Source of the DNA: Thermodesulfobacteriota bacterium
GTDB taxonomy: Bacteria; Desulfobacterota_D; UBA1144; Nemesobacterales; UBA2774
Assembly (NCBI GenBank): GCA_963422265.1
Contig: OY729416.1
Coordinates: 1,719,596 to 1,783,595 of the forward strand
Direction of reading: 5' to 3'
DNA: 64,000 nucleotides
The notes below the pieces were generated by a model that worked only from the letters and a program-made list of their open reading frames with translations, was not told where the DNA came from and did no database searches. Position 1 is the stretch's first letter. Each line of letters begins with the position of its first letter. The translations under genes were made by a program, and so were the position numbers. This document shows positions 9,806-44,082 of the stretch, in pieces.

Positions 9806-10849
9806 TTACTTCTCAAACCTTCTCCACAGCCTACCGACTAAGATAAAAGCCGGGATTAGAAGGTATGCGACTGGGAAGGAAGAGCTAGAGCTCCCAGATG
9901 ACGCTAAGGCGCATCCATCAGATCCTTTAGGTCCGCGCTCCCCTTGCGGTCCATCAGATCCTGCAGGTCCTGTTTCTCCTTGTTCCCCTCTCATCACAAG
10001 GTCTTTTACAACTTTTTTAATATTTTCTTCTTTCTTATCTTCTTCTGCTTCTTCCTTCGCTTCCTCAGTTAAGAAGCCGCCGACTACTAATTCGCCTACC
10101 ATTACTCTCTTCTTGCTGTCTTCACCTTCAATACAAGCCTTACCTTCAACGCAACTAGCACTATCAGCATTGTCTATATCCAGCAACTTCCCATCTTTCA
10201 CAATCTTACCACCGCCTTTTTCAGTAACAGTTAGTAGTTGGATTGACTTGTCCCCACCTGTCTGCGATGTCTCAGCAGCCTCAGCTTCTTTTAGTTTTAC
10301 CCACAGTAATAACTTCTCTAAGCTGCCTAGATGACCAAACATACCTTTGGGAAGAGGTAGTTTTACTGGGCTAGCCTTTGCACCAAGCTCAAGCACCGTC
10401 ACGCTACCTGCACCCTGAAATAAATCTTCGCCGCCTTCAAGTTGAAATTCTCCTTTTTTAGAGAAGACAACTAGCTTAAAAGAATCCGCGTACTTTTTTA
10501 CAAACTCTTGGTCGCAGATGTAATCGATTCCTTTACTTTCATTTCCTCCTTCAATAATATCTTCTTTGACGTAATCAACAGGGTCTTCAGGTTTTCCCGT
10601 CAAAGGGTCTGCCTTGATTGTAGCCTTTTTATCTTCCCCCATAATAAATGTGGGACCCATAAATCTGAGGACGGGTTTGTCACTCTCATTCCAATTCGCC
10701 TCGATATACTTACCGTCTGAACCACAAATTGCTGCCTCGGCTGTAGGCGTAAGAACGAACAAGCTACACAACAAAAAGCCAATAACCCCTATCCCCAACG
10801 TAATGCGGGGAAGTGAACTGCAAAAACTGATGATGCTACTAATAACCAT
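9806..10849 (-). CDS. Secreted/surface protein with short collagen-like G-X-Y repeat and C-terminal GC-TM-basic tail
   Basis: Signal peptide ending AEA; GEQGETGPAGSDGPQGERGPKGSDG; GCALASSGSSSSS then hydrophobic helix then RLWRR; GGAGG RBS upstream. Confidence 0.8.
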   Translation of the reverse strand: MVISSIISFCSSLPRITLGIGVIGFLLCSLFVLTPTAEAAICGSDGKYIEANWNESDKPVLRFMGPTFIMGEDKKATIKADPLTGKPEDPVDYVKEDIIEGGNESKGIDYICDQEFVKKYADSFKLVVFSKKGEFQLEGGEDLFQGAGSVTVLELGAKASPVKLPLPKGMFGHLGSLEKLLLWVKLKEAEAAETSQTGGDKSIQLLTVTEKGGGKIVKDGKLLDIDNADSASCVEGKACIEGEDSKKRVMVGELVVGGFLTEEAKEEAEEDKKEENIKKVVKDLVMRGEQGETGPAGSDGPQGERGPKGSDGCALASSGSSSSSFPVAYLLIPAFILVGRLWRRFEK

Positions 10850-10999: not shown

Positions 11000-11290
11000 T
11001 GTTGCGGGGGGATTTATGTAAGGAAGGGACTCTCGTTCCCTGATGCCTATCAAATCCCCCTGTATCCCCCTTTTCTAAAGGGGGAGAAGAAGATATTTCC
11101 CTCCTTTTGTAAAGGAGGGATAGGGTGGATTTTCTTTTTGTTTGTAGGAGGGGGACCCTAGCGCTGTCCTGAGTGGTCAGTGCGACATTCTGAGTTTACT
11201 GAAGGGGGCATAACCGCATTGCGCGCCGGGGGGTTAGGGAACGAGAATATTGCCTTATCCTCCCCCATCCCATCTGGATTCCTGCTTTCG
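11000..11290 (+). repeat. Composite palindromic repeat cluster
   Basis: Hairpin modules; 11180-11415 is nearly identical to 15432-15659. Confidence 0.85.
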
Positions 11291-11415
11291 CTTTATCCTT
11301 CTAAACCCGTTATATCAGCATTTCTGTAGCTATTTATAAAGCAACTTGCTTGTTTGTTTATATTAGTTCGTGTAAAAATTAACTATATAGCAAGTATATT
11401 AAGGAGATAACAATT

Positions 11416-12069
11416 ATCTATAAGCAAGCATCCATCTGTCTTATAGGAATTCTTTTACTCACAGTTAGCCTATCAACCTCCTCTAGGGCGCAAGGGGCGC
11501 CGCAAGGACTTGCGGCGACACCTGGAAACAAAAAGGTGGAGTTGGAATGGGAGTATCCTGATGACGACAACATCGTTAGTTACGAGTTAAAGTGGTGGAC
11601 TGATCCCGATTCTACTAAGTATAGCCATTACCAAGTCTGGGAGGGCATTCCGGAAAGTAATAAGAACACGACCACGTACACGGTGAGGGATCTGTGGGAC
11701 GACGGCGTGTGGTATGGATTCCGCATCCGTGCGGTGTATGGCGGCGATGTTAAGGGACATCCGTCCGAGATCGTCCGCGCGACGCCAACTTCGACGCCGG
11801 TTTTGCCACCAGATAAGACTAAGGAGCAGGATTCACCTCACCCCCCCCCCCCCCCCACAATGAACGATAGCGGAAGCAGCGGGGGCTGCGCTCTTATTGG
11901 TGTAGGTGTAGAAGGAGAGGGTGAAGAAGGCGCTGGATTTTTAGCTATTTTATTTTTATTAGCGCTAATCCCCTCAGTTCGTATTTATAGGTCGAGGGTA
12001 GGCGGCTCACAAGCAGCCCCTGTTGTAGGGGTAATTACCTGTATCCCTCTCCCAGGGGGGAGCATGTAA
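11416..12069 (+). CDS. Single-FN3-domain surface protein, copy 1 (start codon ATG>ATC; possibly silent)
   Basis: Paralog of 15660 and 16799; AAGGAG RBS followed by ATC TAT AAG where the paralogs have ATG TAT AAG; frame open to 12069; FN3 pattern (L.W..P, YTV..L, YGFRI.A). Confidence 0.75.
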   Translation: MYKQASICLIGILLLTVSLSTSSRAQGAPQGLAATPGNKKVELEWEYPDDDNIVSYELKWWTDPDSTKYSHYQVWEGIPESNKNTTTYTVRDLWDDGVWYGFRIRAVYGGDVKGHPSEIVRATPTSTPVLPPDKTKEQDSPHPPPPPTMNDSGSSGGCALIGVGVEGEGEEGAGFLAILFLLALIPSVRIYRSRVGGSQAAPVVGVITCIPLPGGSM

Positions 12070-12370
12070 GGAAGGGGTTACGTTCCCTGCTGTCTATCAA
12101 ATCCCCCTATATCCCCCTTTTCTAAAGGGGGGAATATGTGAGGAAGGGGTTACGTTCCCTGCTGTCTATCAAATCCCCCTATATCCCCCTTTTCTAAAGG
12201 GGGAGTGTATGAGGAATGTTTTCGTTCCTCGATGTCTATCGAATCCCCCTGTATCCCCCTTTTCTAAAGGGGGAGTATATGAGGAATGTTTTCGCTCCTC
12301 GACCCTCTTACTGTATGCCCGCTCGGGGACAGGAGTGACGGTGGGAGGGTATTACGGGGAGGAGTGAACA
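12025..12370 (+). repeat. Three ~70-bp hairpin units plus flanking modules
   Basis: Three copies of CTATC(A/G)AATCCCCCT.TATCCCCCTTTTCTAAAGGGGG. Confidence 0.9.
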
Positions 12371-12448
12371 ACGGTGGGTGTATATCTACCTGACGTATTC
12401 TCTAACGTAGCCTTGCACCCATGCTAAAATCGTCTATCCTTTTAGGCT

Positions 12449-13414
12449 ATGTATGACGCGCGGACGACGAGGGAAACTAAAAAGGAACCTAGAAGGAAAC
12501 CTGATTGGATTAAGGCTCAAATTCCATCGGGTCCTAACTACAAGCGTCTAAAAAATCTGACGAGAGCTCTCGGTCTCCACACGGTTTGTGAAGAGGCTAA
12601 GTGTCCCAATATAGGCGAGTGTTGGGGGGCGGGCACGCTGACGTTTATGATACTAGGTGATACCTGCACTAGAAGCTGCGGATTTTGTCACATTAAAACG
12701 GGTAGGGGGGGCGAGATTGACTGGGATGAGCCGTTAAGGGTTGCCCAAGCCGTTAGCAAGCTGGCTGAGTGTAACGCTAGCGTGAGCCACGTTGTAATAA
12801 CGTCCGTGAATAGAGATGATAGGAACTACGAGAGCGCGTGCGTTTTTGCTGAAACGATAAGAAAGGTAAGGGAATATAACCGCGATGTGAGGATTGAGGT
12901 TTTGATCCCCGATTTCAAGGGGGATGCAAAAGCCCTTAAGCAAATTGTGAACGCAGCCCCCGACGTTTTGAACCACAACGTGGAAACGGTGCCGAGATTA
13001 TACCGTCTTCCGCAGGAGGCGACTTCGGGTAAAATCCGCTCTGTGCGCCCGCAGGCGAGGTATGAATGGTCGCTGTCGGTTCTTGAGTGTAGCAAGAAGC
13101 TAGGCGGTAGTAATATGCTCACAAAATCAGGAATTATGGTTGGACTCGGAGAGGAGATAGAAGAGGTGATGGAAACACTTAAAGACATGCGCGACGCGGG
13201 CTGCGACATTGTAACGATAGGGCAGTATCTTCAGCCAACAAAGGATCACATTCCCGTTTCAAAATACTATCACCCTATGGAGTTTGATTCGCTCAGGACT
13301 TATGCGGAGGGCATTCTTGGGTTGCCTCACGTAGAGGCTGGACCACTCGTTCGAAGCTCTTACCATGCCCATAGGCAGGTAGTTAAGCTGGGGCAGGGCG
13401 CAGTGGCGTCTTGA
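12449..13414 (+). CDS. lipA: Lipoyl synthase
   Basis: CEEAKCPNIGEC and CTRSCGFC motifs, NHNVETV, RSSY. Confidence 0.98.
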   Translation: MYDARTTRETKKEPRRKPDWIKAQIPSGPNYKRLKNLTRALGLHTVCEEAKCPNIGECWGAGTLTFMILGDTCTRSCGFCHIKTGRGGEIDWDEPLRVAQAVSKLAECNASVSHVVITSVNRDDRNYESACVFAETIRKVREYNRDVRIEVLIPDFKGDAKALKQIVNAAPDVLNHNVETVPRLYRLPQEATSGKIRSVRPQARYEWSLSVLECSKKLGGSNMLTKSGIMVGLGEEIEEVMETLKDMRDAGCDIVTIGQYLQPTKDHIPVSKYYHPMEFDSLRTYAEGILGLPHVEAGPLVRSSYHAHRQVVKLGQGAVAS

Positions 13415-13474
13415 TTTTGGGCTTGGGCATGACTGTAGTTATTTAAGCGCTTTAGATGATCCCTGGCTTTCCGC

Positions 13475-13503
13475 TTGACAACCCCTTTAGCCTCACACAT
13501 ACT
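13475..13503 (+). promoter_or_regulatory. Putative sigma70 promoter for nuoN
   Basis: TTGACA-17 nt-CATACT. Confidence 0.55.
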
Positions 13504-13559
13504 AGGCTGCGCAAAAGGGTGACTACAAGGGTTGCCCATAAGACCTGAGGCGTCATCCT

Positions 13560-15020
13560 ATGGATCTAAGCCAGCTTTTAAGAAGCACTCTTCTCATAGC
13601 CCCTGAGATAACCGTTATTTTTACAGGCGTTTTGTTGATAGCGATTTGTCCGATAGCAAAGGGATTGCTAAATAAAAGCCTTTTCTGGCTCGCATTAGTT
13701 GGATTATCAGTTGGATTTTGCCTTAACATTAGCAGGTTTGGTGGCGTAGAAGTCGCCTTTGGTGGGGCGCTTTCTCTTGATCAGTTCGCCGCCTTTTTTA
13801 ACTCTATCTTCCTATTTGCCGCAGCGCTTACCATAGTTTTTTCAAGGGATTATCTGTCTAATGCTGGGCGCCCAAACGAGTTTTACGCTTTAATATTGTT
13901 TTCCACTTCGGGGATGATGATATTAGCCTCTGCCAAAGAGTTCATGTCTCTGTTCATGGGTTTTGAGATCATGTCTATCTCAGTTTATATATTATCGGCT
14001 TTTAACAGAAGATCGGTGAGATCCACCGAGTCTGGCGTCAAGTATCTTATACTAGGTGGATTTTCATCCGCCATTCTTCTTTACGGAATAGCTCTTCTCT
14101 ATGGGGCTTCTGGCTCCGTGTATTTAGACCATATATTCAAAGGCTTTGACTTGAGCAATCCTCTATACCTTGCCGGTGGGGCGCTTGTGCTCATTGGTTT
14201 GATCTTTAAGATCGGGGCGTTTCCCCTTCACCAATGGGTGCCAGACGTCTATGAAGGAGCGCCTATGACCGTAGCTGGTTTTATGTCCGTCGGGGTAAAA
14301 GCCGCAGCCTTCGCAGTCTTGCTCAGGGTTGTCTTCGAAGGTTTAGGTCAGATGCAGGCTGACATTACGCCGGTTCTTTGGATAATCGCCGTATTTACAA
14401 TGACGGTTGGGAACTTAGCGGCGATTGCCCAAAGCAGCGTGAAGCGTATGCTTGCCTACTCGAGCATAGCTCACGCGGGTTACGCTCTTGTGGGGGTCGT
14501 GGCGGCAGCGAACGGCGGGAACGCTCTCGCCGTTGGGGGTGTTCTATACTATTTATTTGCTTATGCCTTTATGAACTTAGGAGCTTTTGGCATATTGAGC
14601 TATCTTTCAAAAGACGGCAAGGAGAGCGAGAGCTTTGAAGATATAGCTGGTATTTGGAGGCGAAGGCCTTACGTAGCCCTTGCTCTAGGCGTGTTTATAT
14701 TTTCGCTTGCGGGGATTCCTCCCACAATTGGATTTTTCGCCAAATATAGGGTTTTTCTTTCCGCCGTCCAGTCGGATTTCTACTGGCTAGCGGTAATTGG
14801 TGCGCTGAACAGCGTCGTGTCGGTTTATTACTATTTGAAGGTTCTAGTCTATGCCTATATGAAGGAAGACAAAGCTGCTTTTCCCTCCTTCAGGCTGGGT
14901 TCATCAGCCGCTTTGACGATTCTTGTTTTTGGCTCTCTTTTTCTTGGGGTGTTTTCATTTGCTTCCTGGGATATGGCGATAAGGGCTGCGGGGAGCATCC
15001 TTGTAGCCATCGGCGGGTAA
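13560..15020 (+). CDS. nuoN: NADH-quinone oxidoreductase subunit N
   Basis: Multi-TM; E...KY.ILG, FKIGAFPLHQWVPDVYEGAP, KRMLAYSSIAHAGY, SLAGIPPT.GF..K. Confidence 0.95.
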   Translation: MDLSQLLRSTLLIAPEITVIFTGVLLIAICPIAKGLLNKSLFWLALVGLSVGFCLNISRFGGVEVAFGGALSLDQFAAFFNSIFLFAAALTIVFSRDYLSNAGRPNEFYALILFSTSGMMILASAKEFMSLFMGFEIMSISVYILSAFNRRSVRSTESGVKYLILGGFSSAILLYGIALLYGASGSVYLDHIFKGFDLSNPLYLAGGALVLIGLIFKIGAFPLHQWVPDVYEGAPMTVAGFMSVGVKAAAFAVLLRVVFEGLGQMQADITPVLWIIAVFTMTVGNLAAIAQSSVKRMLAYSSIAHAGYALVGVVAAANGGNALAVGGVLYYLFAYAFMNLGAFGILSYLSKDGKESESFEDIAGIWRRRPYVALALGVFIFSLAGIPPTIGFFAKYRVFLSAVQSDFYWLAVIGALNSVVSVYYYLKVLVYAYMKEDKAAFPSFRLGSSAALTILVFGSLFLGVFSFASWDMAIRAAGSILVAIGG

Positions 15021-15047
15021 ATAATAAATTTGTAAGGTGGGGAGAAA

Positions 15048-15398
15048 ATGACTGAATTGGATGACTCGCAATTAAGCGAAAAAGCTGAAGAGGTCTTTAA
15101 TAATGTTGTTGCGCCCGCGTTTCGTAATTTGTTAAACGATTATAACGGAGGGGGTTACGGCGTTAAGCTTGTTCCCGATAGCCCCTTGATAACTGGAATT
15201 GATAAATACGCCTCTATAATGATAAGGCATCCGAACGGTGTTGAAATGGTGATCTGCGTTTACTGGATTGCGGGAAGCGACAAGCTTGCGGCGGAGAATA
15301 TGCGCATGGTTACGCTTCGCAAGACCTTTGATCTGTTCACCGTTACGAAGGATGAGCTTGAGGGGCAGGTTAAGTTTTTAGGTGGTATGCGGCGCTAG
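15048..15398 (+). CDS. Hypothetical protein
   Basis: 116-aa ORF with GGAG RBS, co-oriented after nuoN. Confidence 0.7.
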   Translation: MTELDDSQLSEKAEEVFNNVVAPAFRNLLNDYNGGGYGVKLVPDSPLITGIDKYASIMIRHPNGVEMVICVYWIAGSDKLAAENMRMVTLRKTFDLFTVTKDELEGQVKFLGGMRR

Positions 15399-15659
15399 GG
15401 AGGATTTCTTATTTGTGTGTGGGCGATTTGAGCGACATTCTGAGTTTACTGAAGGGCGCATAACCGAATTGCGCGCCGGGGGTTAGGGAACGAGAATATT
15501 GCCTTATCCTCCCCTATCCCCTCTGGATTCTTGCTTTCGCTTTATCCTTCTAAACCCGTTATATCAGCATTGCTGTAGCTATTTATAAGGTAACTTGCTT
15601 GTTTATATTATTCGTGTAAAAATTGATTATATAGCAAGTATATTAAGGAGATAACAATT

Positions 15660-16268
15660 ATGTATAAGCAAGCATCCGTCTGTCTTATAGGGATTCTTTT
15701 ACTCACAGTTAGCTTATCGACCTCCTCTAGGGCGCAGGCGCCGCAAGGACTTGAGGCGCATGCTGGAAACAAAAAGGTGAAGTTGGAATGGGATTATCCT
15801 AATGACGACAACATCGTTAGTTACGCGTTCAGGTTTTGGAGTTATGACGAGGAAACTGGCAGGAACCATGACCAAGTCTATAAGGGCATTCCGGAAAGTG
15901 ATAAGAACACAACCAAGTACACGGTGAGTGGGCTGTACAACGACCTAGAGTATGGATTCCGCATCTGTGCGGAGTATGAGGACGTGGTGTGTGATAAAGA
16001 TGATCCGGGAGTTGTTGAGTCCAATCCCGCCACCGTGACGCCAACTTCGACGTCGGTTTTGCCACCGGATAAGGCTGAGGAGCAAGATTCACCCCTCCCA
16101 ATGAACGATAGCGGAAGCAGCGGGGGCTGCGCTCTTATTGGTGTAGGTGTAGAAGGAGAGGGTGAAGAAGGCGCTGGATTTTTAGCTATTTTATTTTTAT
16201 TAGCGCTAATCCCCTCAGTTCGTATTTATAGGTCGAGGGTAGGCGGCTCAAGCAGCCCCTTGTTGTAG
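15660..16268 (+). CDS. Single-FN3-domain surface protein, copy 2, with C-terminal GGC-TM-basic tail
   Basis: AAGGAG RBS, signal peptide, FN3 pattern, SGSSGGCALIG...FLAILFLLALIPSVRIYRSR. Confidence 0.88.
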   Translation: MYKQASVCLIGILLLTVSLSTSSRAQAPQGLEAHAGNKKVKLEWDYPNDDNIVSYAFRFWSYDEETGRNHDQVYKGIPESDKNTTKYTVSGLYNDLEYGFRICAEYEDVVCDKDDPGVVESNPATVTPTSTSVLPPDKAEEQDSPLPMNDSGSSGGCALIGVGVEGEGEEGAGFLAILFLLALIPSVRIYRSRVGGSSSPLL

Positions 16269-16700
16269 GGGTAATTACCTGTGTCCCTCTCCCAGGGGGA
16301 GAGGGGGAATATAGGGAATGTTTTCATTCCCCGCTGTCTATCAAATCCCCCTGTGTCCCCCTTTATCTAAAGGGGGAGAATATAGGGAATGTTTTTGTTC
16401 CTAGACCCTCTTACTGTATTTCCGCTCGGGGGCAGGAATAATGGAAACACCCTCACCCTGTATCCCTCTCCCAGAGGGAGAGGGGGAAAAGACAAAATTT
16501 CTCGGTTGCGCTTTGTCGTTAGGCAAGCTCAGGAGTTAGAAAGGATATTCCCCTCCTTTTGTAAAGGAGGGATAGGGTGGATTTTCTTTGTGTCTGTAGG
16601 GGGGGGGGGAGGGGAGACCCTAGCAATGTCCTGATCGTGCTGAAGGATGGTTGTTCCAAGTCGTGAAGGTGATGGGCAACCACAAGGGTTACCCCTAATA
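16265..16700 (+). repeat. Composite palindromic repeat cluster between FN3 copies 2 and 3
   Basis: Same modules as 8699-9140. Confidence 0.85.
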
Positions 16701-16798
16701 TCAGCATTTCTGTAGCTATTTATAAAGTAACTTGCTTGTTTATATTATTTCGTTTAAAAATTAACTATATAGCAAGTATATTAAGGAGATAATAATTT

Positions 16799-17557
16799 AT
16801 GTATAAGCAAGCATCCGTCTGTCTTATAGGGATTCTTTTACTCACAGTTAGCTTATCGAACTCCTCTAGGGCGCAGGCGCCGCAAGGACTTGAGGCGAAA
16901 CCTGGAAACGAAAAGGTGAAGTTGGAATGGGATTATCCTAATGACGACAACATCGTTAGTTACGCGTTCAGGTTTTGGAGTTATGACGAGGAAACTGGCA
17001 GGAACCATGACCAAGTCTATAAGGGCATTCCGGAAAGTGATAAGAACACAACCACGTACACGGTGAGTAGGCTGTACAACGACCTAGAGTATGGATTCCG
17101 CATCTGTGCGGTGTATGAGAACGTGGTGTGTGATAAAGATGCTCCGGGATTTGTTGAGTCCGGTCCCGCCTACGCGACACCAACTTCGACGTCGGTTTTG
17201 CCACCGGATAAGGCTGAGGAGCAAGATTCACCACCAGATAGGGCTAATGAGCAGGATTCACCACCGGATAGGGCTAACGAGCAGGATTCACCACCGGATA
17301 GGGCTAACGAGCAGGATTCACCACCGGATAGGGCTAACGAGCAGGATTCACCACCGGATAGGGCTAACGAGCAGGATTCACCCCTCCCAATGAACGATAG
17401 CGGAAGCAGCGGGGGCTGCGCTCTTATTGGTGTAGGTGTAGGCGGAGAGGGTGAAGAAGGCGCTGGATTTTTAGCTATTTTATTTTTATTAGCGCTAATC
17501 CCCTCAGTTCGTATTTATAGGTCGAGGTTAGGCGGCTCAAGCAGCCCCTTGTTGTAG
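16799..17557 (+). CDS. Single-FN3-domain surface protein, copy 3, with tandem-repeat stalk
   Basis: Near-identical to copy 2 plus five extra 30-bp units encoding PPDRANEQDS. Confidence 0.88.
   Translation: MYKQASVCLIGILLLTVSLSNSSRAQAPQGLEAKPGNEKVKLEWDYPNDDNIVSYAFRFWSYDEETGRNHDQVYKGIPESDKNTTTYTVSRLYNDLEYGFRICAVYENVVCDKDAPGFVESGPAYATPTSTSVLPPDKAEEQDSPPDRANEQDSPPDRANEQDSPPDRANEQDSPPDRANEQDSPPDRANEQDSPLPMNDSGSSGGCALIGVGVGGEGEEGAGFLAILFLLALIPSVRIYRSRLGGSSSPLL
17221..17380 (+). repeat. Intragenic 30-bp tandem repeat (5 units)
   Basis: GCAGGATTCACCACCGGATAGGGCTAACGA repeated. Confidence 0.95.
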
Positions 17558-17589
17558 GGGTAATTACCTGTATCCCTCTCCCAGGGGGG

Positions 17590-18790
17590 AGAATATGAGG
17601 AATGTTTTCGTTCCCTGATGCCCTATCAAATCCCCCTATATCCCCCTTTTCTAAAGGGGGAGTATGTGATGAATGTTTTCGTTCCCCGCTGTCTATCAAA
17701 TCCCCCTGTATCTCCCTTTTCTAAAGGGGGGAGAATATGAGGAACGTTTTTCGTTCCCCGCTGTCTATCAAATCCCCCTATATCCCCCTTTTCTAAAGGG
17801 GGAGTGTATGAGGAATGTTTTCGTTCCCCGCTGTCTATCAAATCCCCCTATATCCCCCTTTTCTAAAGGGGGAGTGTATGAGGAATGTTTTCGTTCCCCG
17901 CTGTCTATCAAATCCCCCTATATCCCCCTTTTCTAAAGGGGGAGTGTATGAGGAATGTTTTCGTTCTCCGCTGTCTATCAAATCCCCCTGTATCCCCCTT
18001 TTCTAAAGGGGGAGTGTATGAGGAATGTTTTCGTTCCCCGCTGTCTATCAAATCCCCCTGTATCCCCCTTTTCTAAAGGGGGAGTGTATGAGGAATGTTT
18101 TCGTTCCCCGCTGTCTATCAAATCCCCCTATATCCCCCTTTTCTAAAGGGGGAGTATATAAGGAAGGGGTTCATTCCCCGCTGTCTATCAAATCCCCCTA
18201 TATCCCCCTTTTCTAAAGGGGGAGTGTATGAGGAATGCTTTCGTTCTCCGCTGTCTATCAAATCCCCCTATATCCCCCTTTTCTAAAGGGGGAGTATGTG
18301 ATGAATGTTTTCGTTCCCCGCTGTCTATCAAATCCCCCTGTATCTCCCTTTTCTAAAGGGGGGAGAATATGAGGAACGTTTTTCGTTCCCCGCTGTCTAT
18401 CAAATCCCCCTATATCCCCCTTTTCTAAAGGGGGAGTGTATGAGGAATGTTTTCGTTCCCCGCTGTCTATCAAATCCCCCTGTATCCCCCTTTTCTAAAG
18501 GGGGAGAATATGAGGAAGGGGTTGCGTTCCCCGATGTCTATCAAATCCCCCTGTATCCCCCTTTTCTAAAAGGGGAGTATGTAAGGAAGGGGCTCATTCC
18601 CCGCTGCCCCGTCAAATCCCCCTGTATCCCCCTTTTCTAAAGGGGGAGAATATGAGGAAGGGGTTGCGTTCCCCGATGTTCTATCAAATCCCCCTGTATC
18701 CCCCTTTTCTAAAGGGGGAGTGTATGAGGAAGGGGTTCGTTCCCCGCCCCTCTTACTGTATTCCCGCTCGGGGGCAGGAATGGTAGGGTG
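17590..18790 (+). repeat. Tandem array of 16 units of 70-72 bp
   Basis: AAATCCCCC core at 17628, 17698, 17770, 17840 ... 18614, 18686. Confidence 0.95.
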
Positions 18791-18933
18791 GCGCATCCAT
18801 CTGGAAAGGTGACTGTTTCCTTTTATGATAATGGTTGATAGCGTATAGTATGATAAAATAGCCCTTATCTAATATAGGTTAGGGTCATTTGTCATGACCT
18901 AGTGGGGTGAGCTGGCTTGTTTGGTTACTAACT

Positions 18934-19728
18934 ATGGGAAAGGTTATATGCGTCGCAAATCAGAAGGGGGGGGTTGGAAAGACAACCACGGTGATAAATC
19001 TTGCCGCTTCGTTAGCCGTAGCCGAGAAGAAAACGATGTTTATAGACTTTGATCCTCAGGCTAATGCAACTAGCGGGGTCGGTCTGGATAAATCTAATCT
19101 AAGTCGTCAGACTATATATAATGCAATAATCGGTGCAGTAAGCCTAAGGAACATCGTATTAGAAGTAGAACCTGAGCTGCTTAAAGGCTATCTGTCCATA
19201 GCCCCCGCGAGCCCAGACCTTACAGGGGCGGAAATAGAGCTAATGCACTTTGACGATAGAGAGTGGAAGTTAAGGCAGGTGGTGGAAACGATTTCGGATG
19301 AATACGATTATATCTTTATTGATTGTCCTCCATCGCTTAGCCTGCTGACGGTAAACGCCCTGGTGGCGGCGGATTCGGTTTTGGTTCCGGTGCAATGCGA
19401 GTATTATGCGATGGAAGGGCTTGGACAATTAACGCAGACTCTCTCTCTTGTTAGGCAGAGGCTTAACTCTTCCCTAAGCGTGGAAGGCTATCTGCTAACT
19501 ATGTTTGATTCCAGAAATAAAATCTGCCACACGGTGGTGAGCGAGCTGAGGAATTATTTCGGGAGTGAAGTATTTGACGTTATAATTAATAGAAACGTCC
19601 GGCTTGCTGAGTCTCCAAGCCATGGCAAGCCCGCGTTGCTTTACGACGTTAAATCAGTCGGGGCGCAAAACTATATTGCGCTGGCGCGTGAGATTGTGGC
19701 GAGAAACGCGGGTGGGGTGGTGAATTGA
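18934..19728 (+). CDS. parA: Chromosome partitioning ATPase ParA/Soj
   Basis: NQKGGVGKTTT, D.DPQANAT, DCPPSL, PVQCEYYA, RNVRLAESPSHG. Confidence 0.96.
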   Translation: MGKVICVANQKGGVGKTTTVINLAASLAVAEKKTMFIDFDPQANATSGVGLDKSNLSRQTIYNAIIGAVSLRNIVLEVEPELLKGYLSIAPASPDLTGAEIELMHFDDREWKLRQVVETISDEYDYIFIDCPPSLSLLTVNALVAADSVLVPVQCEYYAMEGLGQLTQTLSLVRQRLNSSLSVEGYLLTMFDSRNKICHTVVSELRNYFGSEVFDVIINRNVRLAESPSHGKPALLYDVKSVGAQNYIALAREIVARNAGGVVN

Positions 19729-20624
19729 AAAAAGCTACTTTGGGTAGAGGGCTTGATGCTTTAATCCCTAAGGAAAACCCGTTCTTGAAGGGGAGCAAGA
19801 ATAAAACGGATGGATACGTCTATGCTAAAATTACCGATATAAGACCCAATCCGAATCAACCTAGAAGAGATTTTGCGGATGAATCGCTTGTAGAGCTTGC
19901 TTTGTCTATCAAGGAGAAAGGGGTTCTACAGCCCTTGGTCGTAAAGCCTGTGGTCGAACCTGATGAAGAAAGAGCTATGGGTGGAGGCGGCGCAAGATAT
20001 GAGATTATAGCGGGCGAGAGAAGATGGAGGGCGGCGCAAAGGGCAGGGGTTGCGAAAGTTCCTATCGTAGTAAAGGAGATTCTCGATGGAGAGGTGCTGG
20101 AGCTTGCTTTGATTGAGAATCTTCAACGTGAAGACCTAAACCCGATGGAAGAGGCTATGGCTTATCAACAGTTGATAGAAGGTTTTGGATTGACCCATGA
20201 TGAAGCCTCTAGACGAATAGGGAAACATAGATCGACGATAACCAATCAGCTAAGACTTCTAAAACTTCCGGACGAGGCAAGGCGCGCATTGATCAACGAA
20301 GAAATAACGGCTGGTCACGCAAGGGCCATGTTGAGCCTTGACTCTCACGAAAAGATTAACGAGGCGCTAGAGATTATACGTAAGCGCGGTCTCTCGGTTA
20401 GGGAGACAGAAAGCCTTGTCAGGAAAATGTCCAGAATCAAAAGAGGCCAAACCAACGACCCTCAAGAGGATAGGCTCATTAAGCGTATTGTAGATGATCT
20501 TAAGAAATCGCTTAGCACACAGGTAAAGATTCTAAATAAAAACGGCAAGGGCAGGATAGAGATAGAGTTTTATTCAGAAGACGAGCTTGAGAGACTTTGC
20601 GGGGTTTTATTGGGCAATTTATAA
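19725..20624 (+). CDS. parB: Chromosome partitioning protein ParB/Spo0J
   Basis: LGRGLDALI, PNPNQPR, IAGERRWRA, ENLQREDLNP. Confidence 0.96.
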   Translation: MKKATLGRGLDALIPKENPFLKGSKNKTDGYVYAKITDIRPNPNQPRRDFADESLVELALSIKEKGVLQPLVVKPVVEPDEERAMGGGGARYEIIAGERRWRAAQRAGVAKVPIVVKEILDGEVLELALIENLQREDLNPMEEAMAYQQLIEGFGLTHDEASRRIGKHRSTITNQLRLLKLPDEARRALINEEITAGHARAMLSLDSHEKINEALEIIRKRGLSVRETESLVRKMSRIKRGQTNDPQEDRLIKRIVDDLKKSLSTQVKILNKNGKGRIEIEFYSEDELERLCGVLLGNL

Positions 20625-35339: not shown

Positions 35340-35750
35340 TAGGGTGGATTTACTTGTTTGTTTGTAGGGGCGACTCTTGTGGTCGCCCGAAGGCGTGAAG
35401 GCAAGAGTAAACACAAGGGTTACCTCTACGAAATGATGGAGAGGGTGGGAATGACGAGGGTATGTGGGAGTATAAGGGATGATTGATCTTCCCCGACGCC
35501 TATCAAATCCCCCTGTATCCCCCTTTTCTAAAGGGGGAATGTGTGAGGAAGGGTTCACGTTTACCATACTCTCTGGCTGGTGGGTCTGCCGGACCATTTC
35601 TGGATTCCCGATAGAATTGGGAATAACTGGGGGTGTGGTGTAGGGGCGACTCTTGTAGTCGCCCAAAGGCGTGAAGGTAATGGGTAACCACAAGGGTTAC
35701 CCCTATGAAAAAAGGGAGTGGAAATGAAGGGGGGGGGGAAACAACTAGGG
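35340..35750 (+). repeat. Repeat cluster between ftsW and murG
   Basis: Near-identical to 32466-32765. Confidence 0.9.
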
Positions 35751-37106: not shown

Positions 37107-38501
37107 ATGTACGGAAAAATTAAGAATATTCACTTTGTGGGAATTGGCGGAATCGGCATGAGCGGTATTGCTGAGGTGCTTCTTAACATGGGTTATTCAG
37201 TGACGGGCTCGGATATCGGGCGATCGGCCACGGTTAACAGGCTTGAGGCTCTGGGTGCAAAGATAAATATCGGTCACAAGGTAGAGAATGTCAATGGAGC
37301 GGATGTGGTTGTTACCTCTTCAGCGATTAAGGCTGATAATTCTGAGGTTGAGCAAGCTAATAACCTGGGCGTTCCCGTTATTCCAAGGGCTGAGATGCTG
37401 GCGGAGTTAATGAGGATCAGGTATGGCGTAGCCGTTGCGGGAAGCCATGGCAAAACAACGGTGACGTCTATGATAGGGATTGTACTTTCACACGGGGGGC
37501 TGGACCCTACGATAGTAGTCGGTGGCAGGGTGCGGACTATGGGAACCAACGCGCGTTTGGGCAAGGGTGATTTCATGGTAGTCGAGGCTGACGAGAGCGA
37601 TGGTTCGTTTCTGCTTCTCTCTCCTGTTATATCTGTGCTTACAAACGTAGATCAAGAGCATATGGATCACTACGAAAGTATGAGCCGACTGGAGGATGCG
37701 TTTTACCGCTTCGTGGGAAAGATACCTTTTTACGGGCTCGCGGTTCTGTGTGCTGATTGTCCACGCGTAAAGGATATGGCGAGCAGGTTTAGTAAAAGGG
37801 GCTTAACTTATGGTTTTGACCAAGACGCCGATCTGTGCGCTCGCGACGTCGTAGCATCAGGTTTTCAGATAGCCTCTGAGCAGTTTTATAAGGGCGCCGA
37901 GTTCAACGTTGTCTATAAAGGCTCTTTGCTTGGCAGGTTGTTTCTTAGGGTGCCAGGTAGGCATAATGCCCAAAACGCGCTTGCGGCGGTCGCCGTGGGC
38001 ATGGAGCTTGGGATGAGCTTTGAATCCGTAAAACAGGGACTGATGGAGTTTAGAGGAATAGACAGAAGGCTGCAGGTAAAAGGAGCCCTAAGAAACGTGC
38101 TCGTTATGGATGATTATGCCCATCACCCGCAGGAAATAAGGGTTACTATCAATACCCTGAAGGAGTCTCAAGCGGGCAGGATCGTAGCGATATTCCAACC
38201 ACACCGCTATAGCAGGACAAAACTTCTATTTGATGAATTCAAAGAAGTGCTTATCAATACAGACGTCCTTTTCTTGATGGATATATACCCAGCGGGAGAA
38301 GAACCCGTAAGCGGCGTGTCGTCTGAAAAGCTGTGCGGTGCTATTAGAAGGGCAGGTCATAAAAACGTCTTTTACTTAGATGACGAGGGGAAAGGGACAG
38401 ACGCGGTAATTGAAGCTCTGGAGCCTGGCGACGTGGTGATTACACTCGGAGCGGGCAATGTATGGGCGTTTGGGGAAAGAATAGTAAAGGAGCTTGAGTG
38501 A
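37107..38501 (+). CDS. murC: UDP-MurNAc-L-Ala ligase
   Basis: GIGGIGMSGIA, GSHGKTT, EADESD, DDYAHHP, FQPHRYSR. Confidence 0.98.
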   Translation: MYGKIKNIHFVGIGGIGMSGIAEVLLNMGYSVTGSDIGRSATVNRLEALGAKINIGHKVENVNGADVVVTSSAIKADNSEVEQANNLGVPVIPRAEMLAELMRIRYGVAVAGSHGKTTVTSMIGIVLSHGGLDPTIVVGGRVRTMGTNARLGKGDFMVVEADESDGSFLLLSPVISVLTNVDQEHMDHYESMSRLEDAFYRFVGKIPFYGLAVLCADCPRVKDMASRFSKRGLTYGFDQDADLCARDVVASGFQIASEQFYKGAEFNVVYKGSLLGRLFLRVPGRHNAQNALAAVAVGMELGMSFESVKQGLMEFRGIDRRLQVKGALRNVLVMDDYAHHPQEIRVTINTLKESQAGRIVAIFQPHRYSRTKLLFDEFKEVLINTDVLFLMDIYPAGEEPVSGVSSEKLCGAIRRAGHKNVFYLDDEGKGTDAVIEALEPGDVVITLGAGNVWAFGERIVKELE

Positions 38502-39412
38502 AGAATCTGGTTGAGCGAATAGAAAAAGTTGGGTGCGAGGTAGAGCACCGCTATCCTATGAGTAAATACACATGGCTTCGCGTTGGGGGCGAAGCCTCGC
38601 TGTTGGCACGTCCGGGTAGTTGCGGTGAGCTAAAGCAAACGCTCGGGCTACTATGTGAATATGGCGTTCCCTGGGTTGTGCTAGGCGAGGGGTCTAACAC
38701 CATCGTTTATGACAAGGGGTTTACGGGGGTCGTGGTTTCTACCAAGAGGCTTAAAGGAATTGAGATAAGGCGGGGCGGCAAGGTGCTTGCCGAATGTGGG
38801 GTGATACTTGGAACCGTGCTGAACAAAACGATTAGAGCTGGACTTGTTGGGTTTGAATTTGCAGCGGGCATACCGGGAACCGTGGGCGGCGGGATTTTTA
38901 TGAACGCGGGCGCCAATGGAGGAGAGATTAAAGACGTGGTTGATATGGTGTGGATATGGAGCTCTGGTAAGGAGGTCGCTCTCTCTAGGGAAGACATAAG
39001 GTTTGAGTATCGCAAAAGCAATTTACCTAGTGGGAGCGTCGTAACCAAAGCCCTGTTTAGGTTGGTGAAGGGCGACGTTGCCCAAAGCGCGAGAATCGTT
39101 AAGAGCTATATGGACAGAAGGAATCGGACGCAGCCTATTAGAACGTCTAACACGGGGTCTATATTTAAGAACCCCCTCGACGTAGCTGCCGGAAGGCTCA
39201 TAGAAGAGCTTGGACTCAAGGGCTTCGCCCTGGGGGGAGCGAAATTTTCTGAGGTTCACGCGAATTTTATAGTCAATTACGACCACGCCTCCGCGCAGGA
39301 CGTGCTAAGGCTTATAGATAAGGCAAAGAACGAGGCTTTGTTAAAGAGAGGAATCAGGCTTGAGACCGAAGTCGTAGTTATTGGGGATGGGGAGGTGATG
39401 TCTGAACTGTGA
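38498..39412 (+). CDS. murB: UDP-N-acetylenolpyruvoylglucosamine reductase
   Basis: G.GSN, GIPGTVGG...MNAGA, GSIFKNP, HANFIVN, LETEV. Confidence 0.97.
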   Translation: MKNLVERIEKVGCEVEHRYPMSKYTWLRVGGEASLLARPGSCGELKQTLGLLCEYGVPWVVLGEGSNTIVYDKGFTGVVVSTKRLKGIEIRRGGKVLAECGVILGTVLNKTIRAGLVGFEFAAGIPGTVGGGIFMNAGANGGEIKDVVDMVWIWSSGKEVALSREDIRFEYRKSNLPSGSVVTKALFRLVKGDVAQSARIVKSYMDRRNRTQPIRTSNTGSIFKNPLDVAAGRLIEELGLKGFALGGAKFSEVHANFIVNYDHASAQDVLRLIDKAKNEALLKRGIRLETEVVVIGDGEVMSEL

Positions 39413-39710
39413 TTTTTGGGATTAAATGATGAGCTATGATTAAAAGGATAAAGGACAAATCCCTGTATCCCTCCTTCGACAGGCTCAGGGCGGCGCTTTT
39501 TTTCTAAAGGGGGAGTATATGAGGAGGGGGTTCGTTCCCCGACGCCTATCAAATCCCCCTATATCCCCCTTTTCTAAAGGGGGAGAAGAAGAAATTCCCC
39601 TCCTTTTGTAAAGGAGGGAAAGGGTGGATTTTCTTGTTTGTCTGTAGGGGCGACCCTTGTGGTCGCCCAAAGGTGCAAGGATAGGGTAACCACAAGGGTT
39701 ACCCCTACAA
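39398..39710 (+). repeat. Repeat cluster between murB and ftsQ
   Basis: Begins with the ATGTCTGAACTGTGATTTT module; ends in a REP-like pair 5 nt before the ftsQ ATG. Confidence 0.9.
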
Positions 39711-39714
39711 AATT

Positions 39715-40452
39715 ATGAACAATAAGAGGCGTAGTTACGCCAGAAACCTGATAAATTACGCTCTAACCCTTCTTATATTACCTGCGGCGGTGGGATACAT
39801 CCTCTTTCATCTCGGGGTTTTTACGGTTCGTGAAGTATTAGTAGAGGGAAACTTTCATCTCGGAGAAAGAGAAATTCTAAAGAGATCGGGACTCAGAGTT
39901 GAGGAAAGTGACATCTTATTTTTCAAAAGCAGCGTAGAGAAATCCATATTACAAAACCCCTTTATAAAAAGCGTTGTGATAGAAAAGGATATTCCCAGCA
40001 GGGTGGTTCGTATAAAGATAGAAGAAGAGAAGCCTTACTGCGTAGCTTTAGATGATGAGGGAGAGCTTCATTACCTAAACCATAGGGGCAAGCGGATCGG
40101 GCATGGGAGGTTGAAATTGGGTCTTGATTTTCCCGTCCTAACAGGGAATGGTATAAAAGACCCAAAGATGCTAAGCGACGCCTTGCGAATATTGGATTTA
40201 TCCTCAAAAAGCAATATCCTGACTTGGAATGAAATATCCCAAGTTGAGGTGGACGCGTTATATGGCCTTAGAGTGTGGATGACGGGTAAGAGGCATATAG
40301 ATTTTGGGCTTATAGAACTTAACGGGGGCGATATCGTTAAGAAGTGGCGGAGGATAGAAAAGATAATAGATCACGCCAGGGACCTGGGCATTAGGGAGTC
40401 TTACATGGACGTGAGTTCTGACAAGATAGGCGTGGTTCGGTTTGAGTCTTGA
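39715..40452 (+). CDS. ftsQ: Cell division protein FtsQ/DivIB
   Basis: TM plus POTRA (F.V..V.VEGN ... P.IKSV.I....P....I.I.E); position before ftsA. Confidence 0.88.
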   Translation: MNNKRRSYARNLINYALTLLILPAAVGYILFHLGVFTVREVLVEGNFHLGEREILKRSGLRVEESDILFFKSSVEKSILQNPFIKSVVIEKDIPSRVVRIKIEEEKPYCVALDDEGELHYLNHRGKRIGHGRLKLGLDFPVLTGNGIKDPKMLSDALRILDLSSKSNILTWNEISQVEVDALYGLRVWMTGKRHIDFGLIELNGGDIVKKWRRIEKIIDHARDLGIRESYMDVSSDKIGVVRFES

Positions 40453-40513
40453 TGTTCCAAAACATCGTGTGGGAGCATCCCGCCTTATGCGGGTTTGGAG
40501 TTAGGAGCGAAAG

Positions 40514-41746: not shown

Positions 41747-41789
41747 GCTAAAATCCAAATGAATGGTTCGGTGTGGAAGGAGTTCAGCT

Positions 41790-42863: not shown

Positions 42864-42864
42864 A

Positions 42865-43360: not shown

Positions 43361-43413
43361 GGGTAGTATTATAGTATTTAAAGGAACATATAATACGAAG
43401 AAAGGAGGATATT

Positions 43414-43884: not shown

Positions 43885-44082
43885 TTGGGAGGAGAAAGAA
43901 CAAATCCCCCTATATCCCCCTTTTCTAAAGGGGGAATGTGTGAGGAAGGGATCACGTTTCCCTACTCCCTGGTTGGTGAGCCTGCCGAGGGTAACTTGTT
44001 GAAGGGTGGTCGCCCTAAGGTGTAGAGGTGAGTGTAACCACAAGTGTAACCACGCATGTCCCCAATCAGGATTGGAGATTAG

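Follow-up and report, generated by a model that had tools for sequence, protein, structure and literature searches.

The locus described here raises the question of which process has made three neighbouring genes, encoding one type of small surface protein in an uncultured bacterium with a small genome, so uneven in their divergence. The window, that is, the whole stretch of DNA analysed, comprises 64,000 nucleotides of contig OY729416.1 (Thermodesulfobacteriota, GCA_963422265.1). Open reading frames are present at all three places, and the products share a common layout of Sec-type signal peptide, single FN3 domain, stalk rich in Pro, Asp and Glu, and C-terminal membrane tag bearing a Cys. 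A first-pass annotation had proposed a family under diversifying selection; DNA alignment bears out its description of 5' leaders, signal peptides and anchors that are nearly identical, with divergent blocks in the middle and at the end of the domain. The two elements to which it had attributed variation in stalk length, a 30-bp repeat and a poly-C tract, are also real. The features are as follows.

11182-11415, + strand: upstream block of copy 1, with conserved leader and ribosome-binding site AAGGAG at 11401-11406
11416-12069, + strand: copy 1; signal peptide 11416-11493, FN3 about 11494-11790, stalk with C16, Cys tag 11860-12009
11841-11856, + strand: C16 tract, in frame, source of the poly-Pro stretch in the stalk of copy 1
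12054-12302, + strand: hairpin-bearing repeat units of 70-72 bp, the first inside the 3' tail of copy 1
15432-15659, + strand: upstream block of copy 2, conserved
15660-16268, + strand: copy 2 (202 aa); signal peptide 15660-15737, FN3 15738-16049, one-unit stalk, Cys tag 16101-16250 (Cys157 at 16128-16130)
15972-16040, + strand: hot segment, codons 105-127; end of strand F, FG loop and strand G
16599-16609, + strand: G11 tract, 190 bp upstream of copy 3
16691-16798, + strand: upstream block of copy 3, conserved
16799-17557, + strand: copy 3 (252 aa); resembles copy 2 except for its long stalk; Cys tag 17390-17539
17201-17382, + strand: 30-bp tandem repeat (family D8), 6.1 units with 95% matches, encoding PPDRANEQDS stalk units
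17585-18747, + strand: 70-bp repeat array of 16.5 units, beginning just 3' of copy 3

The upstream block of copy 1 is covered by repeat families D10-D12 and D15 and differs from that of copy 2 by 15 mismatches in 229 aligned nucleotides plus 12 gap positions. Weak sigma-70-like hexamers (9 of 12 matches only) lie at 15582-15611 in the copy 2 block; the total count of promoter-like matches is no higher than in shuffled sequences.

Copy 2 matches the Pfam fn3 model (E=7e-6, 26.6 bits, cut-off 25), copy 3 falls slightly under the cut-off at 24.8 bits, and the same search gave no match for copy 1. The FN3 fold is confirmed at the level of prediction by an AlphaFold model (pLDDT 88.1) and its Foldseek matches, nearly all of which, among those listed, are FN3-type domains. 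In a tree, the FN3 domains of the three copies group in a single clade, set off by a long stem and adjoining the repeats of two giant proteins that carry a related tag; family branches are long (stems 0.62 and 0.52 vs a median end branch of 0.15).

Searches of the genome with blastn and tblastn found these three loci and no further paralogs. Among 40 related genomes there are no close relatives, and four have remote FN3 matches only. A set of 5.8 billion proteins yielded only four at E<=0.001 and none among its shorter proteins, and a representative library gave 2344 matches; among the 150 of these that were listed, giant proteins with many FN3 domains come first, at 27-42% identity. As judged by these searches, the family is lineage-specific and consists of three genes, one of them lacking an ATG, so that the word "repertoire", used in the first-pass annotation, was generous.

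Outside the stalk, copies 2 and 3 differ by 15 nonsynonymous codons, as previously counted, and by two synonymous ones instead of one: ACG/ACA at codon 127 is joined by a CCC/CCA change in codon 145, which borders the stalk. Seven of the nonsynonymous changes fall near the end of the FN3 domain (residues 105, 108, 115, 118, 122, 125 and 126), and the clustering noticed earlier exceeds chance, with 10 of 21 base changes lying in the 69 of 609 nucleotides that make up codons 105-127 (P=4e-5). In this segment both copies share R103C and a seven-residue insertion with a second Cys. The 21 base changes are confined to 17 codons (P=0.003), four of which are hit twice, and transversions (13) outnumber transitions (8).

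For the FN3 domain, dN/dS exceeds 1 in all three pairs (3.9, 1.84 and 1.68), none being significant alone (one-sided p of 0.12, 0.06 and 0.11, respectively), while the signal peptide gives 0.15-0.22, with purifying selection detectable at 0.15 (p=0.035). When the FN3 comparisons of copies 2 and 3 and of copies 1 and 2, which are independent of each other, are pooled, 9 of 79 changes are silent (p=0.027), the alignment of copy 1 being uncertain within the most diverged blocks; per-change transition weights of 1, 2.4 and 4 give p = 0.015, 0.0014 and 0.0003. The flanking genes lipA and nuoN served as a control. Their listed strain differences are 11 silent vs 9 replacing, with 21 transitions (six non-coding sites included) vs 5 transversions, and copies 2 and 3 depart from this pattern both in silent to replacing changes (2:15, Fisher p=0.014) and in transitions to transversions (8:13, p=0.006). 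Multi-nucleotide mutation events can imitate an excess of dN over dS, and counting double-hit codons as single events leaves 2 silent of 17 for copies 2 and 3, which is not significant (about 0.2). The pooled test and the contrast with flanking housekeeping genes thus lend moderate support to positive selection on the FN3 coding sequence; the direction of the earlier claim stands, and its strength is reduced.

We consider it somewhat more probable than all other readings together that this is a three-gene, tag-anchored surface-protein family evolving as a mosaic, in which exposed parts of the FN3 domain are replaced under selection and the ends are homogenised. It is strongly indicated that replacements in the solvent-facing strand A, C-C' loop and FG hairpin accumulate at a rate at least equal to the silent one. 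They could be driven by positive selection exerted by whatever recognises the exposed domain, for example a host or phage.

The most serious competitor, to which we give roughly half that weight, is relaxed constraint: recent, redundant duplicates drifting neutrally (dN/dS about 1) to loss, the apparent excess of replacements being small-number noise combined with multi-nucleotide events. The non-significant pairwise tests and the crowding of 21 changes into 17 codons would fit such drift. By hand count, the non-coding leaders of copies 2 and 3 have about eight substitutions and two indels in about 108 nucleotides, a divergence about equal to FN3 dN, so neutral drift after duplication keeps some plausibility. 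In the present assembly copy 1 has ATC at the position of the ATG of copies 2 and 3, which the first-pass annotation had passed over, and its tail is frameshifted and non-conserved; lacking an ATG, at least one family member may therefore be dead. Its ortholog in a second assembly (P0003) has an initial M, and its sequence departs from that of copy 1 over the stalk and the segment of strands A and B.

Against drift stand the intact frames of copies 2 and 3, whose proteins recur in the second assembly, together with the localisation of the changes, the constrained signal peptide and the pooled and flank-controlled tests described above. Core residues invariant across the family are retained in all three copies, and differences between copies 1 and 2 sit on columns that are variable among 39 other FN3 repeats of the genome (Mann-Whitney p=0.00026); for copies 2 and 3 there is only a trend (p=0.11). 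The suggestion of a constant framework with a variable surface is thereby upheld. As far as the tag's basic cluster, every coding indel between copies 1 and 2 in the DNA alignment has a length divisible by three. The indels listed for a divergent allele in one public run (X6) behave alike, being +3, -3 and -15 in coding sequence and +4, +10, -1 and -1 in non-coding sequence. The preserved core, the column variability and the indels in threes all argue, as sequence patterns, against decaying genes.

An unlikely, though not negligible, explanation is recombination mosaicism in the manner of cassette-type antigenic variation, with blocks imported from other FN3 repeats or divergent strains and no positive selection. 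Its starting point is shared with the favoured reading. The 150-nt tag shows no differences between copies 1 and 2 where about six silent changes are expected (37.3 silent sites, dS 0.165; Poisson P about 0.002), an identity that points to gene conversion, and mosaic evolution with homogenised copy ends is strongly indicated. Strain variation was looked up in the second assembly and in contigs from public runs. Over 11440-11608 one run holds two 169-nt alleles, one at depth 9.2 and the other at 5.8; the latter shows 17 differences and six gap letters. An X6 contig covering 12265-16361 shows 103 differences; about 23 of those listed lie within the 3.2 kb that is housekeeping DNA, the others falling in the copy 2 locus, where it carries indels of copy 1 type (+TTGT behind 15598, +AGG behind 15736). 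Replacement of alleles from strain to strain, involving whole segments, is thus seen at two loci, those of copies 1 and 2.

The difficulty for import as the sole cause lies with donors. More than 40 other FN3 repeats in the genome are possible sources, but 45-nt windows of the variable blocks match elsewhere in it over only 13-15 nt, the chance level, and for the segment specific to P0003 no part of the genome exceeds 55-60% identity at the protein level. Diverged imports would, moreover, carry silent differences, of which copies 2 and 3 have two, and each copy has its own leader and ribosome-binding site, which does not correspond to a layout of silent cassettes and an expression site.

Programmed hypermutation at the FG region, by a DGR or another targeted mutator, is close to refuted. 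The first-pass statement that the changes are not adenine-specific needs correcting, since adenine stands on one side or the other in 17 of 21 (P=0.004, post hoc), and the excess of replacements and of transversions might also be taken for a mutator. The first-pass rejection of a DGR holds nonetheless, because the changed adenines lie in either copy; four changes involve no adenine and many adenines of the hot segment are unchanged. The sole reverse transcriptase of the genome is an AbiP2-type defence enzyme (PADLOC E=8.5e-200), and no template repeat emerged from blastn, in which the FN3 sequences of copies 2 and 3 matched nothing in the genome beyond the three loci. In the second assembly, an independent contig of 389,999 bases encodes the exact copy 2 protein, and the counterpart of copy 3 (P0002) is identical except for one 10-residue stalk unit fewer, so that no rapid change is seen there when strains are compared, which tells against the favoured reading as well as against a mutator. 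An assembly artefact from mis-assembled or mis-polished repeats can practically be discarded: short-read contigs across copy 2 in runs X1 and X5 do blend copy 2 and copy 3 states at double depth, but the independent contig agrees, both states of codons 21, 86, 91 and 194 occur in public-run contigs, and the differences are substitutions, not homopolymer errors.

Returning to the favoured reading of a mosaic family with selected exposed parts, slippage of the 30-bp repeat is strongly indicated as the means by which stalk length changes. In copy 1, both other frames close with stops just downstream of the C16 tract ("...PPPPPQ" ends at 11863), so gain or loss of one C would make the protein stop before the anchor. 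The in-frame tract might thus switch copy 1 between an anchored and a truncated form.

In the tag, an acidic Gly-rich spacer separates G-G-C-A-L from a hydrophobic helix, and R-I-Y-R-S-R follows the helix. A related tag terminates two giant multi-FN3 proteins, four collagen-like proteins and one subtilase-like protein of the genome. None of the NCBIfam tag models matches at cut-off, the best being Synerg-CTERM (E=0.44). The genome has a secretin and a single Rce1-like (CPBP) gene. The product of this gene has its highest scores with two myxosortase models, MrtP (71.6 bits) and Mrt_core (67.1 bits), under every curated cut-off (100-250). This myxosortase-like protease is the candidate for cutting the tag and fixing the protein to the cell surface.

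Opa proteins of Neisseria are outer-membrane beta-barrels encoded by dispersed paralogs, with hypervariable surface loops and pentamer repeats in the region of the signal peptide. The present family resembles them in having a conserved framework, signal peptide and ends, a variable surface, segment exchange between loci and a slippage-prone repeat within the coding region. There is no sequence relationship, and each of the only three proteins here displays one stalk-borne FN3 domain and has its Cys tag at the C-terminus. The repeat of Opa switches a copy on or off, whereas switching here is putative, and a slip of the copy 1 homopolymer, located in the stalk, would remove the anchor and not abolish export. 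The size- and phase-variable lipoproteins of Mycoplasma (Vlp/Vsa type) are N-terminally lipidated and mostly repeat-only. Nearly identical 5' leaders and signal peptides, in-frame tandem repeats that change length and homopolymer tracts are shared with them; variation in a folded FN3 domain and a C-terminal anchor are not.

The tag is comparable to that of MYXO-CTERM proteins, the substrates in a system with myxosortase MrtX whose cargo TraA is a polymorphic surface receptor (Guo, Haft and Wall, mBio 2025, PMC11980579; see also Haft, preprint 10.1101/2023.06.07.544157). The similarities are a tripartite tag (Cys motif, membrane helix, basic cytoplasmic end), a CPBP protease nearest the myxosortase models, a secretin, and polymorphism in the prototype cargo. 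The differences are an unusual 12-residue acidic Gly-rich spacer between Cys motif and helix, extra residues beyond the basic cluster, the low protease scores, and a different phylum, in which the system is a prediction.

Proteins with FN3 domains are enriched in genomes of host-associated bacteria from sponges, where they are thought to mediate attachment (Robbins et al., ISME J 2021, PMC8163846), and the PFNA adhesion and signalling cluster of Bifidobacterium evolves rapidly, with positive selection on host-communication genes (Dyachkova et al. 2019, PMC6803598). FN3-bearing bacterial proteins and reported selection on host-communication genes link these cases to ours; the published observations concern gene content or differences between species, whereas ours come from comparing paralogs and strains within one organism and concern a minimal single-domain protein. 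The proteins may act as adhesins or receptors, and the bacterium may be host-associated; an indirect hint of the latter is that one study listed for the DNA has Hi-C genomic libraries. We regard the family as a genuine yet fairly ordinary case of variable surface proteins.

The 70-bp unit of the array 3' of copy 3 also follows copy 2 (16278-16440). In runs X1, X5 and X6 the summed contig depth over the array is 410-1350, vs 19-46 in single-copy DNA, and contigs of three runs have loose ends at 16602, in the G11 tract.

Copies 1, 2 and 3 are encoded on the same strand of the window, which is the final 64 kb of one 1,783,595-base contig. The genes lipA and nuoN and a small ORF separate copy 1 from copy 2, and parA and parB follow 3' of copy 3.

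Copies 1-3 and their repeats (window coordinates)
11416-12069, + strand: copy 1, ORF, paralog of copies 2 and 3
15660-16268, + strand: copy 2, ORF of 202 amino acids
16799-17557, + strand: copy 3, ORF of 252 amino acids
11841-11856, + strand: C16 tract, in frame in the copy 1 stalk
17201-17382: 30-bp repeat, 6.1 units, in the copy 3 stalk
12054-12302, 16278-16440 and 17585-18747 (also 11033-11115): arrays of a 70-bp hairpin unit, 16.5 units after copy 3

Each of the three genes is preceded by a conserved leader, AT-rich and 110 to 235 nt long, that contains an AAGGAG ribosome-binding site. The encoded protein begins with a signal peptide of 26 residues (MYKQASVCLIGILLLTVSLS.SSRAQ), continues with a single domain about 100 residues long and a stalk rich in Pro/Thr/Asp/Glu, and ends in a C-terminal tail. 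In the present assembly the start codon position of copy 1 reads ATC, against ATG in copies 2 and 3; copy 1 is either off, weakly translated or dead. A promoter scan of the conserved leaders returned only weak 9-of-12 matches, and their total of 15 was not clearly above that of shuffled sequences (8.6, sd 3.3). The 70-bp unit, which carries a CCCCCTTTTCTAAAGGGGG hairpin, forms an array directly after each copy, and the tails of copy 1 and of its ortholog from a second assembly, P0003, read into it. In public sequencing runs the summed contig depth of these arrays is 410-1350, compared with 19-46 in single-copy DNA, and the unit is thus present in many copies per genome.

Assignment of the domain to FN3 rests on profile, alignment and structure prediction evidence. 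The Pfam fn3 model (PF00041, cut-off 25 bits) matches copy 2 with 26.6 bits (E=7e-6) and copy 3 with 24.8 bits, just under the cut-off; copy 1 gave no fn3 match at E<=1. Aligned with 39 FN3 repeats from the same genome, all three copies retain the invariant L, W, Y and L. An AlphaFold2 model built from this 42-row alignment (pLDDT 88.1, pTM 0.79) has seven strands in the beta-sandwich arrangement of FN3, and the matches listed in a Foldseek search of the PDB are almost all of FN3 type (e.g. 6x39, E=1.5e-5, TM 0.69/0.76). Searching 1.84 billion representative proteins with phmmer yielded 2344 matches at E<=0.001; among the best 150 of these, giant multi-FN3 proteins lead, at 27-42% identity, and the only small single-domain proteins are those of the genome itself. 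Taken together, these results identify the domain as FN3.

The first-pass annotation had described a family with a constant framework and variable segments, and this observation as a whole is confirmed. Outside the stalk, copies 2 and 3 differ in 17 codons. The 15 replacing codons counted originally stand; the silent ones number two rather than one, namely 127 (ACG/ACA) and 145 (CCC/CCA). Seven replacements are indeed clustered at the end of the domain, in residues 105-126, corresponding to the end of strand F, the FG loop and strand G. Ten of the 21 base changes fall within 69 of 609 nt (P=4e-5), and all 21 are confined to 17 codons (P=0.003). This clustering is not due to chance. Copy 1 departs from the other two in two blocks, as had been noticed: one runs from strand C to the end of the C-C' loop (residues 56-75), and the other is the FG region. 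In the latter, a 7-residue insertion sets copies 2 and 3 apart, as do two cysteines, R103C and C111; position 103 is Arg in all 39 other FN3 repeats of the alignment. The near-identity of signal-peptide and anchor DNA between copies 1 and 2 was borne out as well, and so was stalk variation through the 30-bp repeat or the poly-C tract.

Nucleotide differences between copies 1 and 2, by segment
Leader: 15/229 mismatches, 12 gaps
Signal peptide: 6/78 mismatches, 0 gaps
FN3: 63/285 mismatches, 24 gaps
Tag: 0/150 mismatches, 0 gaps

Strain variation was followed in the second assembly and in contigs of three public runs (X1, X5 and X6). A 389,999-base contig of the second assembly encodes three relatives: copy 2 exactly; P0002, which is copy 3 minus one 10-residue stalk unit; and P0003, which begins with M and has five stalk units. 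P0003 differs from copy 1 by 13 residues and two indels between Gly27 and Ser55; its frame is kept, with one residue fewer after its five prolines, as in copy 1. Run X1 has two 169-nt contigs at 11440-11608, one equal to the window (depth 9.2) and one with 17 differences and 6 gap letters (depth 5.8). By its ends and counts the second contig fits the P0003 allele; on these counts, rather than on the contig letters, we infer that at most about one of its 17 differences is silent, since 13 replacements need at least 16 base changes.

A single 4121-base contig of run X6 covers 12265-16361 and carries 103 differences as well as 64 gap letters. Of the differences, about 23 are listed in 3.2 kb of housekeeping DNA, and the remainder lie in the copy 2 locus, where the allele carries copy 1-type indels (+TTGT behind 15598, +AGG behind 15736). 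This allele also has a 10-bp insertion, CAAGTATATT, at 15634 in the copy 2 leader, between promoter-like hexamers and the ribosome-binding site, and this insertion could alter expression. Contigs of X1 and X5 over copy 2 have double depth and mix the states of copies 2 and 3; we read them as bubble-popped collapses of two paralogs, not as new alleles. For copy 3, X6 has no contig at least 85% alike over 16864-17291, three contigs continue past 16697 into unlike sequence, and one joint skips from 16697 to 17608, its shorter side comprising only 24 letters; these data do not suffice to call copy 3 absent there.

We then compared replacing and silent changes among the copies by Nei-Gojobori counts.

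Pairwise FN3 dN/dS, with one-sided p for a ratio above 1
Copies 2 and 3: 3.9 (1 silent, 15 replacing), p=0.12
Copies 1 and 2: 1.84, p=0.06
Copies 1 and 3: 1.68, p=0.11

The excess is significant in none of the three pairs taken singly. The signal peptide has a dN/dS of 0.15-0.22 (p=0.035 for a ratio below 1, copies 1 and 2). When the two independent FN3 comparisons are pooled, 9 of 79 changes are silent (p=0.027); when the silent share to be expected is derived from copy 2, the pooled p is 0.015, 0.0014 and 0.0003 at a per-change transition weight of 1, 2.4 and 4, respectively. As a local control we used lipA and nuoN in X5 and X6, where the differences listed for the public-run contigs, beside which a further 161 rows exist, amount to 11 silent and 9 replacing changes and to 21 transitions (6 non-coding sites included) and 5 transversions. 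Copies 2 and 3 depart from this control both in silent to replacing changes (2 to 15; Fisher p=0.014) and in transitions to transversions (8 to 13; Fisher p=0.006). Among the strain differences listed for lipA, two (12770 and 13088) are TGT>CGT, exchanging Cys for Arg, a surprising change in a radical-SAM enzyme if these particular cysteines are important.

Several observations speak against plain decay of the copies. Variable sites were located by predicted secondary structure and by column conservation across the FN3 family, and the differences between copies 1 and 2 sit at columns that are variable among the 39 other repeats (p=0.00026); for copies 2 and 3 there is a trend only (p=0.11). 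In the DNA alignment of copies 1 and 2, the indels that lie within the coding frame, as far as the tag's basic cluster, are multiples of three. The indels listed for the divergent X6 allele are +3, -3 and -15 in coding DNA and +4, +10, -1 and -1 in non-coding DNA. Other observations count against a strong claim. Multi-nucleotide mutations are able to mimic an excess of dN over dS, and when double-hit codons are taken as single events the copy 2/copy 3 comparison (2 of 17 silent) is not significant. Between copies 2 and 3 the leader has changed by about 8 substitutions and 2 indels over about 108 nt, a rate about equal to dN. On balance, positive selection on the exposed FN3 surface appears to be the most likely cause of the pattern, with moderate support from these comparisons.

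Cassette-type antigenic variation would draw on silent donors, and no promoterless donor match beyond chance was found in the genome. Genome-wide blastn and tblastn searches for more paralogs returned the three loci only. When 45-nt windows of the variable blocks were compared with the genome outside the trio, matches were of 13-15 nt, at chance level, and the best identity of the P0003-specific peptide anywhere in the genome was 55-60%. The genome therefore lacks a silent-cassette archive, the variable blocks having no additional copy in it. Nor were close relatives found elsewhere: 40 related genomes contain none, four of them having remote FN3 matches only; a metagenome contig collection and a genome contig collection gave two and nine remote loci, all at 31-42% identity and none an ortholog; and a set of 5.8 billion proteins contained four matches near in length and none among shorter proteins.

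A diversity-generating retroelement (DGR) had been dismissed on the ground that the changes are not adenine-specific. That ground does not hold, since 17 of the 21 changes involve adenine (P=0.004, post hoc), and yet the dismissal does: the adenines occur in either copy, there is no template repeat (no fourth copy in the genome), and the sole reverse transcriptase is of AbiP2 type. This defence enzyme (L030:871-2385, - strand; genome ~1,037,728-1,039,242; PADLOC E=8.5e-200) adjoins a PDC-S34-like ORF, a 76-residue FN3 remnant and a C56 tract. An assembly artefact is rejected because the copies are reproduced independently in the second assembly and in public-run contigs.

The 150-nt tags of copies 1 and 2 are identical, although about six silent changes are predicted from the FN3 silent divergence of 0.165 and 37.3 silent sites (zero seen; Poisson P ~0.002). 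This identity indicates that the ends were homogenised between copies, most simply by gene conversion. Two giant multi-FN3 proteins of the genome (38,384-42,397 and 42,787-45,939) have G-C-S-L tails with the same succession of spacer, helix and basic end, and their final residues are SSSPLL, as in the trio. Part of the signal-peptide DNA of copies 2 and 3 is 90% identical over 31 nt to the 5' end of the 42,787-45,939 gene. In a tree of 42 FN3 domains the trio forms one clade (support 100/99) on a long stem of 0.62, beside the repeats of the tagged giants, a sister position that is weakly supported (85/76); copies 2 and 3 share an extra stem of 0.52, compared with a median end branch of 0.15. 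Based on the shared tails, the signal-peptide match and the tree, the family appears to be a shortened, rapidly evolving offshoot of the tagged multi-FN3 genes.

The tail of all three copies consists of GGCAL, a 12-residue acidic, Gly-rich spacer (IGVGVEGEGEEG), a 16-residue hydrophobic helix (AGFLAILFLLALIPSV) and RIYRSR, and thus has the Cys motif, transmembrane helix and basic C-terminal cluster of Cys-type sorting tags. A G-C-[AS]-L tail of like build is found on at least 8 further ORFs of the genome, including four collagen-like proteins and a subtilase-like protein.

Loci of related Cys-bearing tails
Window 9806-10849, - strand: collagen-like protein
Window 45257-47314, + strand: subtilase-like protein
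Genome 1714866-1719339
Genome 38384-45939

In MYXO-CTERM, a tag with the same three-part build and an invariant Cys is described as being cut by the CPBP protease MrtX, and the polymorphic surface receptor TraA as its prototype cargo (PMC11980579). The tail of the trio is alike in its three-part build with a Cys but matches no catalogued tag model. Whole proteins gave no tag model (TIGR03901, TIGR04564, NF033191 and the like) in NCBIfam at E<=1, and the tails alone, at E<=10, gave only Synerg-CTERM (E=0.44; 10.7 bits, cut-off 22.5). The sole Rce1-like/CPBP gene of the genome (L024:1477-2133, - strand; genome ~1,328,472-1,329,128) encodes 218 amino acids. Its top NCBIfam matches are myxosortase models, all under cut-off (given in brackets): MrtP 71.6 bits (250), Mrt_core 67.1 (100), MrtC 59.9 (195) and MrtS 53 (130). 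The gene adjoins no cargo gene, and a secretin is present in the genome. We regard the Rce1-like protease as a candidate sorting enzyme for the Cys tag. By analogy, the tail probably works like a Cys-type sorting tag, of an uncatalogued family.

The C16 tract encodes the poly-Pro part of the copy 1 stalk. Past it, both other frames meet stops within a few codons, and a slip of one base would therefore yield a protein without the anchor. The X1 contig listed here ends at 11835, just before the tract, and no tract length can be read from it. C/G runs of 10 or more number 25 in the genome and reach 56, and A/T runs reach at most 10, all of these being assembly-derived lengths that are not trustworthy as such.

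C/G runs
Window 11841-11856: C16
Window 16599-16609: G11, 190 bp upstream of copy 3
Window 35729-35738: G10
Genome 303901, 871285, 963506/963615, 1040423, 1637199 and 46208: runs upstream of large predicted surface-protein genes

The genomic runs listed lie 25-330 bp upstream of these genes: G11 precedes a tagged multi-FN3 gene, G12 and G21 precede the gene for an FN3 protein of 2074 residues, and C22, G37, C56 and C40 precede other large ORFs. The positions of C16, within the frame of copy 1, and of the G11 upstream of copy 3 are like those of contingency loci, and by sequence and position the poly-C/G runs fit a set of such loci.

The combination of a single FN3, an adjustable stalk, an uncatalogued Cys tag and a stalk homopolymer is itself an uncatalogued build. 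Opa and Vlp/Vsa are known variable surface-protein families, and the evolutionary pattern of the trio resembles both. One study describes FN3 proteins as enriched in sponge-associated genomes (PMC8163846), and another reports positive selection in host-communication genes of bifidobacteria (PMC6803598). Our literature search found no paper joining "Dadabacteria" with "phase variation", and the papers listed included none on FN3 proteins of sponge symbionts being under positive selection, which does not prove their absence.

One could picture the trio as a polymorphic identity or recognition tag, comparable in logic to TraA. A minimal FN3 would be held off the cell on an adjustable stalk and fixed there by an uncatalogued Cys-tag/myxosortase-like route. 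Its exposed face would be made up of strand A and the C-C' loop, joined in copies 2 and 3 by a long FG loop with a bracing disulfide, and would be under balancing or diversifying selection between co-resident strains. Through C16, one member would alternate between anchored and released states, and the tract would belong to a poly-C/G "phasome" that covers surface proteins across the genome, in a bacterium that has a small genome and is probably host-associated. That all of these parts hold jointly we consider unlikely. The family is tiny, the selection signal is moderate and any function is putative.

Little is known of surface variation in uncultured, probably host-associated bacteria with small genomes, and this locus offers a compact and tractable case, with a mappable variable face on a 100-residue FN3, a stalk of changing length and a C-terminal tag that connects the trio with sorting enzymes of a class discovered only recently. 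Should more alleles bear out the selection signal, the variable positions would mark the face interacting with a host or phage partner, and probes could then be made by expressing the three small domains; should the signal fail, the family would be merely a drifting set of duplicates.

Finally, GC skew is negative at 6-12 kb of the window (-0.23 at 6-8 kb) and strongly positive, at 0.1-0.29, from about 12 to 50 kb. Together with parA and parB at 18907-20624 and the end of the single contig at the end of the window, this pattern suggests that a replication origin may be near.
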